DNA from: an uncultured delta proteobacterium | Lineage (GTDB): Bacteria > Desulfobacterota > Desulfobacteria > Desulfobacterales > SpSt-501 | Length of the DNA: 64,000 nt | Reading direction: 5' to 3' | NCBI GenBank assembly: GCA_963700055.1 | Contig: CAVOWH010000001.1 | Location: 2,199-66,198, forward strand | In this document: positions 44,352-52,313 of the stretch, one piece after another | Layout: each line of letters opens with the position of its first letter | Numbering within the stretch: position 1 is the stretch's first letter | Translations under genes and position numbers: made by a program | Notes under the pieces: generated by a model | What the model saw: the letters and a program-made list of their open reading frames with translations, nothing else | The model's database searches: none | What the model was told of the DNA's origin: nothing

Positions 44352-46889
44352 TCAGTTATTTGCAAGCATCTTCATCAGATTGGGCATGCCGTGTCCCTGG
44401 ATGTACACATCACGGTTGAGATCGGTGCAGTTGTCCAGAAGGATCCTTTTTACCCGGTTTGGATAGCCGATGAATTCACGTCTCACGGAAAGGAATGCGG
44501 CCAACAGTCCCGACACATGTGGAGCTGCCATACTTGTACCACTCATCTCAATATACAGGTCATTAAGGGTCCTCTGATCTTCCGGCTTGTTTTTGTCATA
44601 GGCGTGGTAAGCGGACAGAACCTGCTCGCCCGGGGCTACAAGATCGGGCTTTTTTCGTCCGTCAGCCGTAGGTCCTCTCGAAGAGAAGTAAGAAACCCCG
44701 TATGTATGCGGATTAGACTTATGTATTGACCCTACGGCTATTGCCTCTTCGAGATTAGCCGGATCTCCGATTGAGAGGTCCATATTGGACGGAACTTGTC
44801 CTCCCAGAGCTTGAAGGACAGCGTATCCTTCATTGCCTGCCGCCAGACAAACCAGAACCCCCTGACCCCACAATCGACGCAACTCCTGGCATACTGGAGT
44901 ATGACCGCAGCCATACACGCTTGAATCAAATGATCCCCCAAGGCTTAGGTTCACTCCCTGGACTACCAGCTTACCCGCATTTTCATTGAGATCGGCAATG
45001 CAAGTGAGGGCTTTGATAACGTATGAGTCCTGACCATTGCCCTGATCATCGAGTACTTTTAATCCATATAGTTTTGTTTCTGGAGCCATTCCGCTAAAGA
45101 TGTCATCGGGTGCTCCGGATTTGTCCATAGACTTGTGCCATCCGGCAATGATTCCCGCCACATGTGTACCGTGCCCGTTTTTGTCTGCCGTTTTACTCTC
45201 ATCCTCATTTATTTCCTCTGGCTCTCCACGCTTCGTACAGTCCCACTGGCGTGCGACGTTTCTGTGCTTCTTGAAATGGGGGTGATCCGCACAGATTCCT
45301 GTATCGAGTATTGCCCACACAATGTCCCTGCCCAAGGCTTCATAGCTCAAATTTGCCGGACGAGCCTGAACGGTGATAGTAGATCGATTTATCAATGCCT
45401 TCTTTGATGCATCCCGCCACACCTTCTCGATCATCAAGTCTTTGTATCGGGTACGCAGCCGCTCGATTTCGAGTCGTGTGAGCTTTGCCGACATCCACCT
45501 TCTGAGTGGATCAATTGCGGCATCCTCCACACTGTCGCCGCTCTGAGTGACCATCTCCTCGATTGTCTCTCTCAGTTTGGCGCCAACATCGGAGAGATTT
45601 TCCTGATCGAGTGGCCCTCTACCGGCATGGGTCGTCAGTTGAATCAATACCGTGTGCCGTTCCTTTCGAAAGCTATCCTCCAGCCCTTCGACCAGATCCT
45701 TCACGATAATGGATTTGGCCACCGCTTGAGAGAATCCATTGCCCGCCGTTTCACGCACCGCGGTGCGGACCGGGATGCTGCGAAGATAGCCCGTAGCTGA
45801 ATGAGGGTGTAGCGGCGCATCAGGATTCAAGAGAAGCTCGCTGTAATTCTCAATTCTTTCTTTTGGAGAGAAATCGTTTCCTACATCATGATCGGCCGCC
45901 ACGGGGTCGAGCCACTCAGATACATTGATCCACCTCGAAACGCAGGCAGGCACACTGAGAACTCCATCGGGTGCCCAGCCCCGAAAAATGTCCTTCACTT
46001 GCGGGAGCCCAAGAGGCGAACCGATTGTCAGGAAGAGCCGCACATCACATTCAGCTTGGGAAAGCTGACGCAGAACGTTGTATGCGATCATCGATCCCTG
46101 GCTGTGGGCTATCACAATAAACGGCCCGCCACCAGCATTGAGACGATCCACCAAGCTCTGCTCCATGGCCTGTCTTCTATCGGGATGGAAAAAGAAGTCG
46201 TTCAAATCCCTGAGAAACGCACGGGTGAGCTTTTGTGTGACAAGTCGCATGAGAAAGGAGTCCAGAGGCACAAATCTGATGCGTGCGTTAGCAGCCTTTA
46301 GGACCCGATCATCTATGTTACTTTCCTTGAGCAATCCCCGTCTGGTCATGTCCTCAGCCATCTTACGCAGCCAAACACGCTGGGCTTCGTTTCTGGTAAG
46401 GGCTTTTATTTCCGACTCAATTGCCTTCCGCTCGTCTGTGGGCTTCTTTGAAGCAAGGGCTATTGTGGATTTGGGCGTTACCTCATCGTCATCTATTTTA
46501 ATCGTGTCTTCGTGGGCGCACGTTTCATTGGACGGGACAGGATAATATTCTCTATTGACCCAGTAAGCCATGCGGCTGCGGTCGCCAAGTTGCACTCCAA
46601 ACAATGCGGAATCCCACTGGCACTTCAGGACAGATGCAGGTGGTTTATTTCCGATACCGTGGACATATATGATGGTTTCAATTTGAGAAGGTGCACCTCG
46701 AGCAACCGTGAGCGGTGCTCTTTCTTTTGGTCTTGGTGGGCTAATTGAAATAGGCCCGGGTGGTTCAATCTTCAAAGCCGTCTTGAATGATGAAGCCCTC
46801 TTGCCTGCAACGGATGCACTTTCTGCGGCGCTCCTGTCGGTTGGTTCCGTCTGCTTCTGCTTCCTCGGAGGCTTCGTTCGCTTAGCCAT
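44352..46889 (-). CDS. Fusion protein: basic disordered N-terminus, alpha/beta-hydrolase-like domain, C-terminal subtilisin-like S8 peptidase; no signal peptide
   Basis: IIYVHGIGNKPP and FIVIAHSQGSMIAYN (nucleophile elbow). S8 triad contexts WAILDTGICADHPHF, NGHGTHVAGIIAG, MSGTSMAAPHVSGLLAAF. GAGGAG RBS. Confidence 0.85.
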   Translation of the reverse strand: MAKRTKPPRKQKQTEPTDRSAAESASVAGKRASSFKTALKIEPPGPISISPPRPKERAPLTVARGAPSQIETIIYVHGIGNKPPASVLKCQWDSALFGVQLGDRSRMAYWVNREYYPVPSNETCAHEDTIKIDDDEVTPKSTIALASKKPTDERKAIESEIKALTRNEAQRVWLRKMAEDMTRRGLLKESNIDDRVLKAANARIRFVPLDSFLMRLVTQKLTRAFLRDLNDFFFHPDRRQAMEQSLVDRLNAGGGPFIVIAHSQGSMIAYNVLRQLSQAECDVRLFLTIGSPLGLPQVKDIFRGWAPDGVLSVPACVSRWINVSEWLDPVAADHDVGNDFSPKERIENYSELLLNPDAPLHPHSATGYLRSIPVRTAVRETAGNGFSQAVAKSIIVKDLVEGLEDSFRKERHTVLIQLTTHAGRGPLDQENLSDVGAKLRETIEEMVTQSGDSVEDAAIDPLRRWMSAKLTRLEIERLRTRYKDLMIEKVWRDASKKALINRSTITVQARPANLSYEALGRDIVWAILDTGICADHPHFKKHRNVARQWDCTKRGEPEEINEDESKTADKNGHGTHVAGIIAGWHKSMDKSGAPDDIFSGMAPETKLYGLKVLDDQGNGQDSYVIKALTCIADLNENAGKLVVQGVNLSLGGSFDSSVYGCGHTPVCQELRRLWGQGVLVCLAAGNEGYAVLQALGGQVPSNMDLSIGDPANLEEAIAVGSIHKSNPHTYGVSYFSSRGPTADGRKKPDLVAPGEQVLSAYHAYDKNKPEDQRTLNDLYIEMSGTSMAAPHVSGLLAAFLSVRREFIGYPNRVKRILLDNCTDLNRDVYIQGHGMPNLMKMLANN

Positions 46890-47147: not shown

Positions 47148-47942
47148 CTATCCTCGGCTAATAGCCTCCCTTGCCCAATCACCCAGCACGGAGAGTCGAG
47201 CATAGAGGCCGGGCAACTCTGGTCTCGCACAGCCAATGCCCCAACTAGTAGCTCCGACGAGGATCTTTTGACCTTTCTGCACAGCTATTAAAGGTCCCCC
47301 AGAGTCTCCCTGACATGCGTCTTTTCCACCCTCTGGGTAGCCTGCTGAAAGCATGTTTTCAGTCACTACGGCCCCATGTCGACCATATGCTTCTTTAGCC
47401 TGGTTATATGAGACAACAGGCACTTCCACATGCCTCAAAATTTTAGTCCCCGGACCACCTTCGAAGGTAGCCCCCCATCCTATGGCTATTACTTGCCTTT
47501 CAGGGTCAGTCAGTCCTTCCGGATCACCGCTTGAGATGATTGATACCGGCTGTTTTTGGGAAGCTTTTGAAAGACGCAAAAGTGCAAGATCGCAGTCGGA
47601 GGTGTTAGGGTCATATTGAGGATGGATTATGATTTCCGCCACAGCAATTCGCTCTTCCGGTGTTTCGCGGCGGAAATCGATTATCCCTAGAACAACATCA
47701 AAATCATCCGGATCATTCCCATAGGGGCAGTGAGCTGCGGTCAGGACCCAGTTTGGGGCAATGAGAGCGCCACCACAAAACTGGCCTCTATCCGCACTGA
47801 CACCGTGAGCTACAAGTGCTGTCATCCATGGATATGCGTTTCTATCCTTTACTTCGTCTCCACCTACGATCTTGGGGCGATAAATGGTTTGTCTCCCAAA
47901 ATTAAGTGGGCTGGTTTGGGGCAATTGATTCAAAGCTTTCAT
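47148..47942 (-). CDS. Trypsin-like S1 serine peptidase with a 24-aa pro-segment and no signal peptide
   Basis: MKALNQLPQTSPLNFGRQTIYRPK-IVGGDEV; CGGALIAPNWVLTAAHC (His), DCDLALLRL (Asp), KDACQGDSGGPL (Ser; Asp at the S1 specificity position). Confidence 0.9.
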   Translation of the reverse strand: MKALNQLPQTSPLNFGRQTIYRPKIVGGDEVKDRNAYPWMTALVAHGVSADRGQFCGGALIAPNWVLTAAHCPYGNDPDDFDVVLGIIDFRRETPEERIAVAEIIIHPQYDPNTSDCDLALLRLSKASQKQPVSIISSGDPEGLTDPERQVIAIGWGATFEGGPGTKILRHVEVPVVSYNQAKEAYGRHGAVVTENMLSAGYPEGGKDACQGDSGGPLIAVQKGQKILVGATSWGIGCARPELPGLYARLSVLGDWAREAISRG

Positions 47943-48214
47943 GATTCCTCCTTTCGATTTGACAGAGTCACTTGGTTGTCTTTAATCACATAGATCATCT
48001 GGTGCAGTCCGAAGTCCTCGGTTCTCCGATCAATCACATTGAACCGGACCTTGCCCCTGAACGAGATGACCTCCCTGCCGCCAACACTTTCTTTTTGCGA
48101 AACAGGAGGGAAGATTATCGTGCTGCGTAAGCTGAACCTGTCGCCGTACTTCTCGCGAAGGTAATTAGTAATCAGCTCTTTATAGTTTTCAGGAAATCCA
48201 GCAGAGTTCGTCAT
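47939..48214 (-). CDS. Small (91 aa) protein of unknown function whose stop overlaps the S1 peptidase start
   Basis: ATG at 48214 (an alternative TTG lies at 48226). Its TGA overlaps the peptidase ATG (ATGA at 47939..47942). Confidence 0.6.
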   Translation of the reverse strand: MTNSAGFPENYKELITNYLREKYGDRFSLRSTIIFPPVSQKESVGGREVISFRGKVRFNVIDRRTEDFGLHQMIYVIKDNQVTLSNRKEES

Positions 48215-48307
48215 GATCTCAACCAAAGCCAGGTAAAGGTACTGCCTTGACTTGTACTTAAACTCTTTTCAAATCGTAAAGAATCTGCATCCCTAGGTTG
48301 CGAAATC

Positions 48308-49324
48308 TTAACTTATTCTCCCGATGCTGCTGAGATTATCGCACTTGTATAGGTCGCCTGGTGTAACGAAATCGGCGACCGTCCTCAGGAGGTGGTCCAA
48401 GACCGACGGGATATCCTTTTCGAGCGATCGGGGCGCCCTAGCTGTATTTCCAACCGCGGTAACAGCATAAAAAGATTTGCTGAATTCATATATGCTTTGA
48501 AGCAGTTGGGGACTTCTGAGAGAAGCCTCCAGTTCCAGGGAACGTGTCTTTGGCTTTTTAACTTCTTTAAGGTAGTTGCTGGCAAGATCATCGATCGACA
48601 TCTTAGCCATCCGCTTCTCTTCGGCAGAAAGCGCTCTTTGGCTTCTTTTCCCCGATGACTGGGACAAAAAATCGGACAAAAAGGACCGGGAGCCGGCAAC
48701 ATTACCGGCCCAAACAAGGAGGCTGTCACGATGAATGTTACTGGACGCTGGAGCTTTTTTTGAACCTCTGACTCCTTGAATAGCGTCTCTCATTAAACCC
48801 GGGAAAGGAGCGATATCAAGGCAGTAAGGATCATGAGCCACAGGCAGAGCTTCGTCATAACACCGGTATACGAATTCGGAACAGATCATCGGTTGCCGAT
48901 CACCCTGCTTCATGAGTATGTCGGCAGCCTGGTCGAATATTTTCCGAAGCAGCCAGGAAAGGTAATTATTAACTTGTAGCTTTCGAGTGAGACCGAGTAT
49001 CGCCAGCAGCACGAGTTGCTCATACCCATAACGGTTCCCAATCTGAAGATACCAATTTGCCTTATCCACCACAGGCTGCATCGTTCCTGGATCTGTTTTC
49101 ATTCGTCGAACGATGGCGTATTCAGCATCGTGAATGCTGCCCCTAATGGTATTGCACTTTATACCCGCACCCACTGCTTCGACAACCTTCCCATCTCCTA
49201 TACAGACCGAAGCATGGTTTACTTCGGTTCCGTCAAAAAATTGGATTAAGTTGGCCAACAAACTGTTGCTGTGATATAGAATAATGTCTCCTGCTGAAAT
49301 TTCCTGCATTCCCATCGTATTCAT
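48308..49324 (-). CDS. Permuted papain-fold (YiiX/C92-like, NlpC/P60 superfamily) enzyme with a C-terminal extension of about 170 aa
   Basis: GDIILYHSNSLLANLIQFFDGTEVNHASVCIG...VVEAVGAG...AIVRR...PMICSEFVYRCY (His before Cys gives the permuted order). GGAGGG RBS. Confidence 0.65.
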   Translation of the reverse strand: MNTMGMQEISAGDIILYHSNSLLANLIQFFDGTEVNHASVCIGDGKVVEAVGAGIKCNTIRGSIHDAEYAIVRRMKTDPGTMQPVVDKANWYLQIGNRYGYEQLVLLAILGLTRKLQVNNYLSWLLRKIFDQAADILMKQGDRQPMICSEFVYRCYDEALPVAHDPYCLDIAPFPGLMRDAIQGVRGSKKAPASSNIHRDSLLVWAGNVAGSRSFLSDFLSQSSGKRSQRALSAEEKRMAKMSIDDLASNYLKEVKKPKTRSLELEASLRSPQLLQSIYEFSKSFYAVTAVGNTARAPRSLEKDIPSVLDHLLRTVADFVTPGDLYKCDNLSSIGRIS

Positions 49325-49506: not shown

Positions 49507-51177
49507 TTAGTGACTTTTATTTATTGTTGTCATTTTTCTCAAACAGCCTGGCTTAAGATGCTTTGTGCGTTGTCTCTCATTCAGTTGGAGGAGCCGCTGA
49601 ATCCAAGAAGTAGAAATTGCTGCTTCGAGTCCCAATGGCTGACGTCGGGTTGTCTTCCTTGATTGGTCTTTAAATAAATATTTGTAGTCTGGCCAAGAAC
49701 CAATAATGTTGTCTCTTTCTGCTTGGATGCGCTCCTCCTCAGCGGCTTCTCGCTTTCCCAGAATAAAAAACGCGAGCCCTCGGTAGTATCGGTCCTGCGC
49801 CGTGTTTGGTTTAAGATCGCGGCATCGTTTTGCATATAAAACCGCTTCATCCATGTCCCCTATGCAGTACTTGATTGAGGCGAGCTCGGCGAGATCTTGA
49901 ATAGATTCCGGCTCAAGATCTACTGCTTTCTTGAGAAAAGTCATAGCTTTCTCATAGTCGCGAAAGTGAAGTGCAAACTCCGCAAGTTTTCGACAGAAGG
50001 CAGCGTCCTTCTCGCAGGCCGAAATATTCCGGAAAAGCACCCTCAATGCGTCGTGAACCCGTCCTAATGCAAGATAGCAGTCCGCAAGATCGCATACGTA
50101 TGACAGAGGCTGGGTCTGTTCGTTGAGGTACGGCCACACAGCCTGCTCAAAGTAACCGACGGCATCATAGGGCCGCTTCTGGGCAAATAAGATCTTTCCT
50201 CGCAACGCCAAGATATTCGGCTCGCGGCTTTCCTTTTCAGAAAGAGCGTCAAGTTCCACCCATGCCTGTTCCGGTTTACCCAATGCAAGTAGTACTCGCC
50301 CAATGTTGTGAATGACATCGACGATGTGCGAAGAACGTTGAAGCTCACTACCCTCATTCAAGAGTCGCTTGCACCGCTCATAAGCGGCCAATGCTTTCGT
50401 GCACTCACCCAAATGGAACAGAGCACCACCTAAACCATGCCATGCCCGGGGATCTTCCGGATTCATCTCAACCAAGCTCCCAAATGTTTTCGCAGCGGCC
50501 TCATGACGGCCCATTTCCGCCTGGAGCACGCCCAGTGCGAAATAGGGAGAAATCACGTCCGTGGCATCCAGGCACTCCAATTTGTCTATTAGTACCCAGA
50601 TATACTTCTCCGCAACCTCTTTGTGAGTTTGGTATTTCCTCCGAAATTCCGCGTAAAAATCGACAAGCCATTTGATTTCGTGCTTCGGGATCTTGCTGGC
50701 GAACAATTCCTTCTTAAAATCCTGGTCGCGAGGGACTCGAAAGTCGGGGCAGTAGGTGATTTCAAGGTAATGACAAAGCTCCTGAATACCGGTATCGTAA
50801 TCTGTCAGGTCTATGTATGAAAGTCGGTTTTGCCCCTCAAACAGTTCAGTCTTTCTCCAATCATCGATGGCTGGTTCTACAATGCAAATGACCAAGTCCG
50901 GCAGTCCATCAATCGCCTGTCGTTCGCGCATGATTTGACACTCTTTCATAACGTACTGCGACCTTCTTGCAGCCTTGCTGTCGAGAAGGCAAAACCAACG
51001 CGAATCTCGTATTCTCTCCTCGAACTCTCGCTGGAAATCCACACCAATCTGGCGGTCGGCCTCATAGCGCCAAACACGTAGGCCCGAGCGTCGCAGGTCC
51101 TCGCTGATGCGCATTGCCACAACCCCGTCGGAGCTCGCGTAGCTCACAAACACATCGTGCGAAGCAACACTTTTCAT
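49507..51177 (-). CDS. TIR-domain protein with a C-terminal TPR array
   Basis: HDVFVSYASSDG...GLRVWRYEADRQIGVDF...IRDSRWFCLLDSKAARRSQYVMKECQ (TIR betaA, and a Glu at the position of the NADase catalytic residue), followed by about 10 TPR-like repeats. Start taken at MKSVASHD, 8 nt after the upstream stop. Confidence 0.8.
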   Translation of the reverse strand: MKSVASHDVFVSYASSDGVVAMRISEDLRRSGLRVWRYEADRQIGVDFQREFEERIRDSRWFCLLDSKAARRSQYVMKECQIMRERQAIDGLPDLVICIVEPAIDDWRKTELFEGQNRLSYIDLTDYDTGIQELCHYLEITYCPDFRVPRDQDFKKELFASKIPKHEIKWLVDFYAEFRRKYQTHKEVAEKYIWVLIDKLECLDATDVISPYFALGVLQAEMGRHEAAAKTFGSLVEMNPEDPRAWHGLGGALFHLGECTKALAAYERCKRLLNEGSELQRSSHIVDVIHNIGRVLLALGKPEQAWVELDALSEKESREPNILALRGKILFAQKRPYDAVGYFEQAVWPYLNEQTQPLSYVCDLADCYLALGRVHDALRVLFRNISACEKDAAFCRKLAEFALHFRDYEKAMTFLKKAVDLEPESIQDLAELASIKYCIGDMDEAVLYAKRCRDLKPNTAQDRYYRGLAFFILGKREAAEEERIQAERDNIIGSWPDYKYLFKDQSRKTTRRQPLGLEAAISTSWIQRLLQLNERQRTKHLKPGCLRKMTTINKSH

Positions 51178-51185
51178 GTCACCAC

Positions 51186-52313
51186 TCAATGCTTCCTGCT
51201 CCAAGAAGTCGGCGTGACTATATGCGGTAAGGGCCGGATTGCGTTCACCTCTTGCAGGAATGTGGCCCATGCTCTCTGATTGGTCTTCTTCACATACCTG
51301 AAAAACGCCGCATATTTCATCGTGGACTTAGCGGCATCGTATACTTGCGGATTAAGCTTTCGCATATCGCCGCTGATCGACTTGACCCCTGCAGTTAAGT
51401 TCTTGACCTCAGTAACCTTCGGTTCTAAGGAGTTGATCTGCATCGCCACCCTGTTATATTCCTTCATATTTCCGGCCACCCTCAGAGCGTTCGCCTGCTC
51501 CACCAGAGTGCTCCAGGTGCGTTTGTAACCATCGAAATCGGAGGTCCAGAAATAGTAGTAGGGTTCCCCAGCAATATGCAGTCTTCCCTCCTCATGTGTT
51601 GTAAATATTATTGTAGCCTCTTGGTCCGTGAGTACCCACGATTGGAAGGAGACATTTCTCAGAACTGACATGACCTTGTTCGCGCTATCCCGAGCCAGTC
51701 CGGTGGGCTCGGATTCGCCTTTGCCGAGCACCACCTTCCCTTCAAAGGCTGGAAGACGCCACATGTTGGCAATGTCGAAGAGGAGGATGTCGGCCTGTAA
51801 AAGGCGGAGGCCCAGAAGCGTGTTCTGAAAGGCTGGGTGATACACAATGTCGTAAAATGTATCATTCGTACGCTCCCCGAAAAGCGATACACATGCGTTA
51901 TAGTCAGAGTCCGCGTATTTCGAGATCGGCACGAGCAGCCAGTCGGGAAGGGCCTGCGTGTACACCGAGTCTCCTATTCGTACGCTTAGACGGTTCCCGT
52001 CGGCTTTGCCGCTGTCATAGGCAAGGCTGACGGACTTCGAATCAAGCAGTCTGCCGGGCGACGCCATTCCACCGAATGCGACGCCGCCGACCTTGCCGAC
52101 GAACCCGTACGATCCCAGGCTGCCGGATCCCATCTTGGAAAGGAGAGGCCCGCTTGGCGAGCCGTTGACAAATTGGTATGGTCCAAGGTCCCAGGTGCTG
52201 CCTTGCGCCAACGCGATGGCTCCAACCAGCACCACGACGATAGAAACCGAGAGTCCTCGCAACCAATGGCAAGCACGATTTCGGCATGTAGCAGCTTCAT
52301 ATGGCGTCGGCAT
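51186..52313 (-). CDS. Membrane-anchored protein of unknown function, first gene of the island
   Basis: One N-terminal TM (LSVSIVVVLVGAIALA) and a large extracytoplasmic part. The ATG at 52313 is preceded by GGAGGA; the ORF track starts 12 nt upstream. Confidence 0.6.
   Translation of the reverse strand: MPTPYEAATCRNRACHWLRGLSVSIVVVLVGAIALAQGSTWDLGPYQFVNGSPSGPLLSKMGSGSLGSYGFVGKVGGVAFGGMASPGRLLDSKSVSLAYDSGKADGNRLSVRIGDSVYTQALPDWLLVPISKYADSDYNACVSLFGERTNDTFYDIVYHPAFQNTLLGLRLLQADILLFDIANMWRLPAFEGKVVLGKGESEPTGLARDSANKVMSVLRNVSFQSWVLTDQEATIIFTTHEEGRLHIAGEPYYYFWTSDFDGYKRTWSTLVEQANALRVAGNMKEYNRVAMQINSLEPKVTEVKNLTAGVKSISGDMRKLNPQVYDAAKSTMKYAAFFRYVKKTNQRAWATFLQEVNAIRPLPHIVTPTSWSRKH

Follow-up and report, generated by a model that had tools for sequence, protein, structure and literature searches.

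The window analysed here, a stretch of 64,000 nucleotides from an uncultured delta proteobacterium of the Desulfobacterales (assembly GCA_963700055.1, contig CAVOWH010000001.1, positions 2,199 to 66,198), carries on its minus strand a gene for a trypsin-type peptidase of family S1A without an N-terminal secretion leader and, overlapping its start, the gene of a small partner protein. Leaderless trypsins of this type make up a bacterial family that is small, has not been described before and is nearly always accompanied by such a tiny partner protein, and the translationally coupled, sometimes fused partner is the most informative feature of the locus. The features of the gene pair, in coordinates of the window, are the following.

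47148..47942, minus strand: leaderless S1A (chymotrypsin-fold) peptidase precursor of 264 amino acids (aa), based on the list of open reading frames (ORFs), the Pfam Trypsin match, PDB sequence matches and clade membership
47871..47942, minus strand: pro-segment, codons 1-24, non-hydrophobic, with the motif MKxL...LN....R..P[KR], conserved in the alignment
47871-47873 (K24) followed by 47868-47870 (I25), minus strand: scissile bond at the canonical activation position
47730-47732, minus strand: codon of the catalytic His71, an invariant alignment column
47589-47591, minus strand: codon of the catalytic Asp118, an invariant alignment column
47319-47321, minus strand: codon of the S1-pocket Asp208, an invariant alignment column
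47301..47303, minus strand: codon of the catalytic Ser214 (GDSGGP), an invariant alignment column
47947..47951, minus strand: ribosome-binding site GGAGG read from the sequence, 5 nt before the trypsin ATG and within the 3' end of the partner gene
47939..48226, minus strand: partner protein, longest ORF 95 aa with a likely start at the ATG at 48214, its stop overlapping the trypsin start (ATGA)

The trypsin-type precursor and its missing leader

Translation of 47148..47942 on the minus strand opens with MKALNQLPQTSPLNFGRQTIYRPK, continues with IVGG and is identical to the protein quoted in a preliminary description of this DNA, which had recognized a eukaryote-style trypsinogen architecture without a signal peptide. 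The ATG of the gene is the first start codon after an in-frame upstream stop, so that a longer, leader-bearing N-terminus is impossible. Membership of peptidase family S1A is given by a match to Pfam Trypsin (PF00089) far above the curated threshold and across the whole domain (189.9 bits against a cut-off of 20.6, E 7e-56, with residues 25-256 aligned to positions 1-219 of the 220-position model). In a sequence search of the PDB, with best matches at 1e-44, residue 25 corresponds to residue 1 of the mature chains of a bacterial trypsin-like enzyme (4m7g_A), the kallikrein light chain (2any_A), the enteropeptidase light chain (4dgj_A/1ekb_B) and factor XIa, and the K24/I25 bond is placed at the canonical activation position because I25 aligns with this mature N-terminus.

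In an alignment of 35 family members, the triad residues H71, D118 and S214 (His57/Asp102/Ser195), which align with those of crayfish trypsin and kallikrein, are invariant, as are I25, G27/G28, D208 at the position of Asp189, and D213, the equivalent of Asp194. Equally invariant are the cysteines C56/C72 and C210/C238 of the canonical pairs 42-58 and 191-220; the 168-182 pair is absent from the protease, and the Cys within 'DCDLALL' is not conserved in the family. The 24-residue pro-segment ending in Lys, the triad with the S1-pocket Asp and the retained disulfide cysteines of the preliminary description are thus all borne out by family conservation. As judged from this alignment, the protease carries every residue needed for catalysis together with the classical activation switch, in which an Ile16 N-terminus is generated behind a cleavable pro-segment and meets Asp194. 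The equivalents of D189, G216 and G226 in the S1 pocket predict specificity for Arg and Lys.

Full-length relatives all open with a short polar segment followed by I[VIF]GG. The typical pro-segment of the family reads MKxLxxxxx(A/S)GxLN(A/V)xxxxRxxP[RK] and is 15-27 residues long, with a P1 residue before I[VIF]GG that is R in 32, K in eight, E in two and P in one of the 43 clade members described below. By sequence, the activation bond of the protease hence matches its own predicted Arg/Lys specificity, and an Arg/Lys-specific pocket combined with R or K at P1 would make it chemically plausible that a trypsin molecule cuts K24/I25 in itself or in a sister molecule.

The lack of a leader was judged by hydropathy and by comparison with relatives. 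Within the N-terminal 24 residues the maximum Kyte-Doolittle mean over 11 residues is -0.18, compared with 2-3.6 in signal-bearing bacterial homologues, and there is no RR followed by a hydrophobic stretch as in a signal of the Tat type, in agreement with the leaderless N-terminus claimed earlier. Although some pro-segments of the clade do contain RR, a hydrophobic region never follows and a Tat leader was rejected; equally, a double-glycine leader was discarded, as IVGG is the N-terminus of the protease and the preceding residues are unlike LSxxELxxIxGG. The N-terminal secretion signal usual in S1A enzymes, a trait customary in the family and not formally defining, is therefore not found.

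A search of 5.8 billion proteins identified about 46 close relatives with 45-98% identity, nearly all of 250-265 aa and including a 98%-identical copy of the trypsin from other samples, while homologues ranked around 47th and lower bear obvious signal peptides. In a maximum-likelihood tree of 109 protease domains, the 43 leaderless sequences form one clade (ultrafast bootstrap 100; Shimodaira-Hasegawa-like approximate likelihood ratio test 96), which is nested among signal-bearing bacterial S1A enzymes and splits into two subclades, A and B. No member of the clade has an N-terminal hydrophobic or Tat-like signal and, since all leaderless sequences fall into a single supported clade, the leader was lost in a single event and its absence subsequently maintained. 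As a contrast set served a profile scan of bacterial genome contigs, in which the 80 loci among the matches listed are all ordinary secreted trypsins with at most 45% identity, nearly all with a signal peptide. The designation 'eukaryote-style' is consequently a misnomer, because the pre-pro/IVGG layout is ordinary in bacterial S1A enzymes; it is the missing leader, and not this layout, that is the unusual trait of the window trypsin.

Members of the clade are nearly all stand-alone proteins of 250-265 aa, with the addition of two partner fusions, one SPOR fusion and one hydrophobic tail. Protein P0022 (locus L090, 6017-7111) ends in a C-terminal SPOR peptidoglycan-binding domain, and P0036 has a C-terminal tail of about 165 residues closing with two hydrophobic segments. 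An extra Cys pair is present in subclade B and has been lost pairwise in P0024 and P0039.

The small partner protein

The preliminary description had not linked the upstream ORF of 95 aa to the trypsin gene. Twelve of the 13 distinct loci encode the partner, that is the window and 11 others, one of them as a fusion. A separate gene upstream of the trypsin gene is found in L001 (where it is frameshifted), L002, L005/L006, L007, L088, L089, L091, L093, L094 and L095; the two genes share the four-nucleotide overlap ATGA in the window, L001, L005, L007, L091 and L093, and are at most 20 nt apart in L002, L088, L089 and L095. Furthermore, P0033 (L003/L004) and P0044 are in-frame fusions that carry the partner in front of the protease, with a complete pro-segment kept between the two parts. 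The sole locus without partner, L090 with the SPOR-fused member, encodes an unrelated protein of 128 aa upstream instead. None of the 80 ordinary trypsin loci of the contrast set has the partner, and in the loci examined the partner type, about 88 or about 70 aa long, tracks the protease subclade. The partner gene of L001 (9773-10004) and the trypsin gene of L094 (9821-10527) contain frameshifts, which could be assembly errors or real decay.

A hidden Markov model of the partner, run against 1.84 billion representative proteins, gave 23 matches, approximately 16 of which are stand-alone proteins of 70-114 aa. Most of the other matches were dismissed as spurious, namely P0144, P0145, P0147 and P0157 with DUF7104 repeats and P0152 with DUF7487 repeats. 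In the first four of these, the partial matches consist of several stretches each, located in DUF7104 repeats of STAND proteins of the NACHT/NPHP3 type, and the DUF7104 repeat may resemble the motif xYGDxI of helix and first strand of the partner. No Pfam-A match above noise was obtained for any of 17 partners at E values up to 10, and scans with PADLOC, PHROG and NCBIfam did not assign the partner to a family. The partner pattern was found in one contig of 1.1 kb among the metagenome contigs scanned and in none of the viral contigs scanned.

The AlphaFold (AF2) model of the partner shows an N-terminal helix packed on an antiparallel sheet of four to five strands with a mean predicted local distance difference test (pLDDT) of 80, and the same domain is modelled at pLDDT 80-92 inside a fusion; this N-domain is confidently predicted in P0033. 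A Foldseek search against the PDB (up to April 2026) and BFVD gave nothing significant, with RAD52 ring subunits and NTF2-like folds, at E values of 0.02 or above and template modelling (TM) scores below 0.6, being set aside as non-significant. In the partner alignment one Arg (R34) is invariant and the loops contain basic residues; the partners of subclade A have an acidic tail at their end, those of subclade B are without a C-terminal tail.

Genomic context and a possible latent zymogen module

Apart from the partner, no neighbour is universal among the 13 distinct loci, so that the core of the system is a two-gene cassette of about 1.1 kb. In L088 and L003 this module stands among housekeeping genes and is therefore a self-contained unit. 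Three further genes lie beside it in the window.

44352..46889, minus strand: fusion of an alpha/beta-hydrolase-like module with an S8 subtilase, 845 aa, leaderless, 259 nt downstream of the trypsin gene
48308..49324, minus strand: leaderless permuted papain-like enzyme of the C92/YaeF type (Pfam 7e-9; NCBIfam YaeF 3e-11)
49507..51270, minus strand: TIR-TPR protein (Pfam TIR_2 7e-17 plus TPR families; weak PADLOC matches to TIR effectors)

Conflict-type genes recur around the pair, with the TIR-TPR protein in the window, NACHT, SIR2 plus DUF87, TIR and caspase in L002, CHAT-STAND in L094, MoxR in L090 and MBL-like (metallo-beta-lactamase-like), SIR2-like and patatin genes in L091. MBL-like genes are present in four of the 13 loci, one gene upstream in L005 and nearby in L007, L091 and L093. 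A leaderless Amidase_2 of the PGRP/AmpD/T7-lysozyme type directly follows the trypsin gene in L001, L091 and L094, all of subclade A; further hydrolase neighbours are PG_binding_1, M15_4, GH108, GDSL and patatin, and most of the neighbouring hydrolases are without leaders. An S8 subtilase gene occurs within 10 kb of the pair in five of the 13 loci. It is the next gene downstream in the window and L007, stands beside the pair in divergent orientation in L089 and L095, and is 7.5 kb away in L091.

The recurrence of S8 genes lends indirect support to the subtilase as a possible activator of the trypsin. One group within subclade A has R-[KR]-[FY]-R directly before IVGG, a sequence resembling a minimal R-x-x-R convertase site, and this resemblance together with the S8 recurrence keeps the idea alive. 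The 845-aa fusion of the window is a candidate for such an activator or else for a separate protease-effector unit.

With a probability of roughly 0.55, we favour the view that the two-gene module comprises a latent cytoplasmic zymogen of the trypsin type and a trans-acting, prodomain-like partner, which serve in a response of the conflict or abortive-infection type. The trypsin precursor would stay inactive in the cytoplasm, with the partner bound to the zymogen or its pro-segment as a detached prodomain, be it an inhibitor, a chaperone or a sensor. This role is assigned to the partner because it is fused at the position of a prodomain, is made in step with the enzyme and follows the protease subclade in type. 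Upon a trigger, the K24/I25 bond would be cut, either autocatalytically or by another protease encoded nearby, for instance the S8 subtilase, the new Ile N-terminus would insert next to Asp194 and the freed protease might then cleave proteins of the cell or of an invader, or else a latent effector encoded nearby, for which the alpha/beta-hydrolase fused to S8 is a candidate. Both the defence role and the intracellular action we infer from genomic context.

Several observations weigh against the proposal of a latent cytoplasmic zymogen. The zymogen interpretation, already put forward in the preliminary description, is well served by the invariant I25 and Asp194 equivalents and by R or K at P1 in 40 of the 43 members, but it does not extend in a self-cutting form to the three with E or P at P1, which trypsin could not cut. 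Both disulfide cysteine pairs are conserved without exception and a further Cys pair occurs in one subclade, as would rather be expected of an extracytoplasmic enzyme; one member bears the peptidoglycan-binding SPOR domain and several neighbours are peptidoglycan hydrolases or lipases. Equally, the protease is not joined to any sensor domain, the partner could not be assigned to a defence or inhibitor family, no neighbour besides the partner is universal and the defence context would follow from gene association. The protease part of the AlphaFold fusion model P0033 is below 50 pLDDT (protease alignment depth 2) and gives no view of the docking.

The cysteine pairs, the SPOR domain and the peptidoglycan-hydrolase neighbours would be accommodated if the protease acted in the periplasm or medium, reached by a route independent of Sec and Tat (holin- or lysis-dependent release along with the adjacent leaderless peptidoglycan hydrolases and lipases, or carriage by an injection or vesicle system), and were activated there like a secreted trypsinogen, with the partner as an intracellular inhibitor or immunity protein or as an export chaperone. 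The invariant pairs Cys56/72 and Cys210/238, the joint loss of the extra pair in P0024 and P0039, the position of the leaderless clade inside secreted enzymes, the SPOR fusion of P0022, the hydrophobic C-terminal extension of P0036 and the leaderless Amidase_2, PG_binding_1, M15_4, GH108, GDSL and patatin neighbours are all in its favour. However, none of the 43 sequences has an N-terminal hydrophobic or Tat-like signal, a transporter, holin or injection-system gene is conserved beside the pair in none of the loci, the scan of viral contigs with the partner pattern returned no contig, cytoplasmic conflict genes (TIR, SIR2, NACHT, CHAT-STAND, MoxR) are common neighbours, and cytoplasmic defence proteases that have peptidoglycan-binding domains as their sensors are reported (PMC12642450), so that we regard export as the main rival explanation and as unlikely. 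That the leader is missing merely because the start was wrongly called, or because a secreted trypsin gene was truncated or is decaying as a pseudogene, is hardly credible; the frameshifts in the L001 partner gene and the L094 trypsin gene might hint at decay, but the strong ribosome-binding site before the ATG, the upstream stop with no in-frame start further upstream and 43 independent leaderless sequences forming one clade with conserved pro-segment and intact catalytic residues all but rule it out, and the 98%-identical copy in other samples and the occurrence of the region in many metagenomes speak equally against an artefact.

Alternatively, the partner could be a latent death effector, a pore former of the Pepco/EACC1 style or a toxin, with the trypsin as the licensing protease that cleaves it. 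The order of small gene and then trypsin is that of Pepco-Avs4 (PMC12642450), the N-terminal helix of the partner looks amphipathic and is combined with long beta-hairpins, the best, albeit weak, Foldseek matches are ring-forming RAD52 subunits, the invariant R34 and the basic loop residues could be trypsin sites, and subclade-A partners have their acidic tail. Yet Trypco1 or Trypco2 of Pfam match none of the 17 partners at E values up to 10, the partners of subclade B offer no C-terminal tail that could be cut off, an Asp189 pocket is at odds with the cleavage after Ile that is reported for Pepco, neither a hydrophobic surface nor a transmembrane segment is seen in the partner, and its N-terminal fusion to the zymogen is more prodomain-like; we therefore hold this explanation to be unlikely. 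More speculative still, and in our estimate quite unlikely, is an extension of the zymogen proposal to a cascade, in which the S8 subtilase or a first activated trypsin would cut the R/K-IVGG site of a cytoplasmic S1A zymogen held by the partner as a dedicated prodomain-like protein with a new fold, and the trypsin would subsequently license latent effectors such as the alpha/beta-hydrolase, MBL or peptidoglycan amidase, with peptidoglycan fragments as the input where Amidase_2 or SPOR is attached or adjacent. Such a peptidoglycan-triggered protease cascade would be the prokaryotic counterpart of the insect cascade leading from PGRP to clip proteases.

Among published systems, the nearest are the Trypco1/Trypco2 (= Pepco)-trypsin modules known from prokaryotic conflict systems (Kaur et al. 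2020, PMC7159879; Evans et al. 2025 preprint, PMC12642450), of which the window module is not a detectable member. Protease-effector defence modules in the literature include some that pair trypsin with small Trypco/Pepco proteins, some with alpha/beta-hydrolase and MBL effectors, and some whose proteases carry a fused peptidoglycan-binding sensor (PMC12642450, PMC7159879), and alpha/beta-hydrolases are known as protease-activated effectors (PMC12642450). As in the Trypco/Pepco modules, a small protein adjoins and is co-inherited with a trypsin-fold protease (12 of 13 loci here), the islands in both cases contain TIR, STAND, caspase/CHAT, MBL and alpha/beta-hydrolase genes, and the logic of a latent activity released by proteolysis is alike. 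On the other hand, the partner has no detectable similarity to those proteins in a 2025 copy of Pfam-A presumed to include the Trypco1/2 models and no structural match in the PDB; the protease there is fused to a sensor (STAND, FGE, peptidoglycan-binding and others), whereas it is here a stand-alone S1A enzyme with pro-segment and Ile16 site; and Pepco cleavage is reported after Ile, in contrast to the Arg/Lys specificity predicted for the window trypsin. Many partners of the present family have no C-terminal tail.

A cytoplasmic trypsin-fold protease that licenses a latent effector is also found in the MBL nuclease-trypsin pairs of Hachiman, AVAST and Lamassu (PMC12799240; bioRxiv 2025.09.03.673762), and MBL-like genes accompany four of the 13 loci. 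In those pairs the protease is, however, the N-terminal domain of HamA, Avs1a or LmuA and hence has no pro-segment, and an MBL-fold proenzyme lies immediately upstream, whereas MBL is not obligatory in the present module and an MBL gene is absent from the window. System 3 (NucA) of Kaur et al. unites trypsin and S8 with papain-like or lysozyme-like peptidoglycan hydrolases as co-effectors, and a cascade has been proposed for it. It is mostly alphaproteobacterial, and its core component differs, as no NucA/Endonuclease_NS occurs in the precomputed Pfam lists of the fetched loci or in the Pfam results for the window island, with EAD1 not looked for.

Secreted S1A trypsins, such as the trypsin-like proteases of Streptomyces (PDB 4m7g/5dj7), animal trypsinogen, kallikrein and enteropeptidase, resemble the window trypsin at 36-45% identity in fold, triad, Asp189 specificity, Ile16/Asp194 switch and two cysteine pairs (42-58 and 191-220), but they have a signal peptide and no partner gene, and their 168-182 disulfide is absent here. 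The small upstream gene overlapping the gene of a larger, potentially toxic enzyme is coupled as in type II toxin-antitoxin operons. As in trans-acting protease prodomains (subtilisin I9, the Pro region of alpha-lytic protease), the partner is at times fused N-terminally at the prodomain position; its fold, however, differs from that of I9, and it cannot be placed in any known family of inhibitors or antitoxins.

In the published protease-effector modules compared here, trypsin-fold domains are switched on by a fused sensor (PMC7159879, PMC12642450, PMC12799240). Our literature search found no paper that describes, for prokaryotic conflict systems, an S1A zymogen that stands alone and has an Ile16 activation site, and neither in this search nor in the papers on protease effectors is the textbook zymogen mechanism of N-terminal cleavage and Ile16 insertion reported inside a bacterial cell. 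If true, the proposal would add a second layer of control to prokaryotic immunity or programmed death, in the form of genuine activation of a zymogen, perhaps within a cascade that includes S8 proteases, and equally a new family of small regulatory proteins. It furthermore raises the biochemical question why a cytoplasmic enzyme would keep both structural disulfide cysteine pairs.

Further observations on the island and on related loci

The island that harbours the pair in the window, at about 44.3-52.3 kb, has a guanine-plus-cytosine content below that of most of the window, and genes that by eye look like IS21-type elements stand beside it. No adaptor domain common to the island proteins was found, promoter and terminator scans remained at background level, and comparison with spacers of the same size in L005 and L007 shows no conserved element in the 259-nt spacer between the trypsin and S8 genes. 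Neither the TIR-TPR protein nor the C92/YaeF-type enzyme, a homologue of which is present in none of the other loci, is conserved with the partner-trypsin module. PADLOC matches to LmuA and Avs1b in the window are weak (1e-5 to 5e-10) and partial. The 845-aa protein matches Peptidase_S8 at 1e-48 and Abhydrolase_6 at 1e-4 in Pfam as well as the PADLOC 'subtilase' (PDLC03014) at 1e-75, where the protein has a long stretch inserted that the profile of 391 positions lacks, and its S8 domain is 42% identical to that of L091.

The region is found in many sediment and wetland metagenomes. Short contigs of four environmental metatranscriptomes match 47308-47652 and 48073-48374 with 97-100% identity; they cover portions of both the trypsin and the partner gene as well as of the spacer ahead of the partner gene, and provide weak evidence for transcription of both genes.

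Additional proteases accompany the pair in related loci. The S8 proteins of L089 (7646-9518) and L095 (508-2392) are leaderless with, by eye, a propeptide region of the I9 type, and each gene is followed by that of its own conserved protein of 92 aa, with 73% identity between L089 and L095, and constitutes with it a second unit of protease plus small protein. A leaderless HExxH-like family of about 600 aa (IVAHETGHAILDG), without Pfam or PHROG match, is encoded next to the partner-trypsin pair in L001 (7700-9421), L005 (5464-7299) and L091 (8122-9939), and in L007 (5760-9356) it forms residues about 530-980 of a fusion with an S8 subtilase; these islands may thereby contain yet another, third type of protease. 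In L089 (4965-7301), a run of leaderless peptidases (M14 carboxypeptidase, M10/astacin-like) is interleaved with ORFs of 75-105 aa, and the same locus encodes a protein of 857 aa weakly similar to the caspase of L002.

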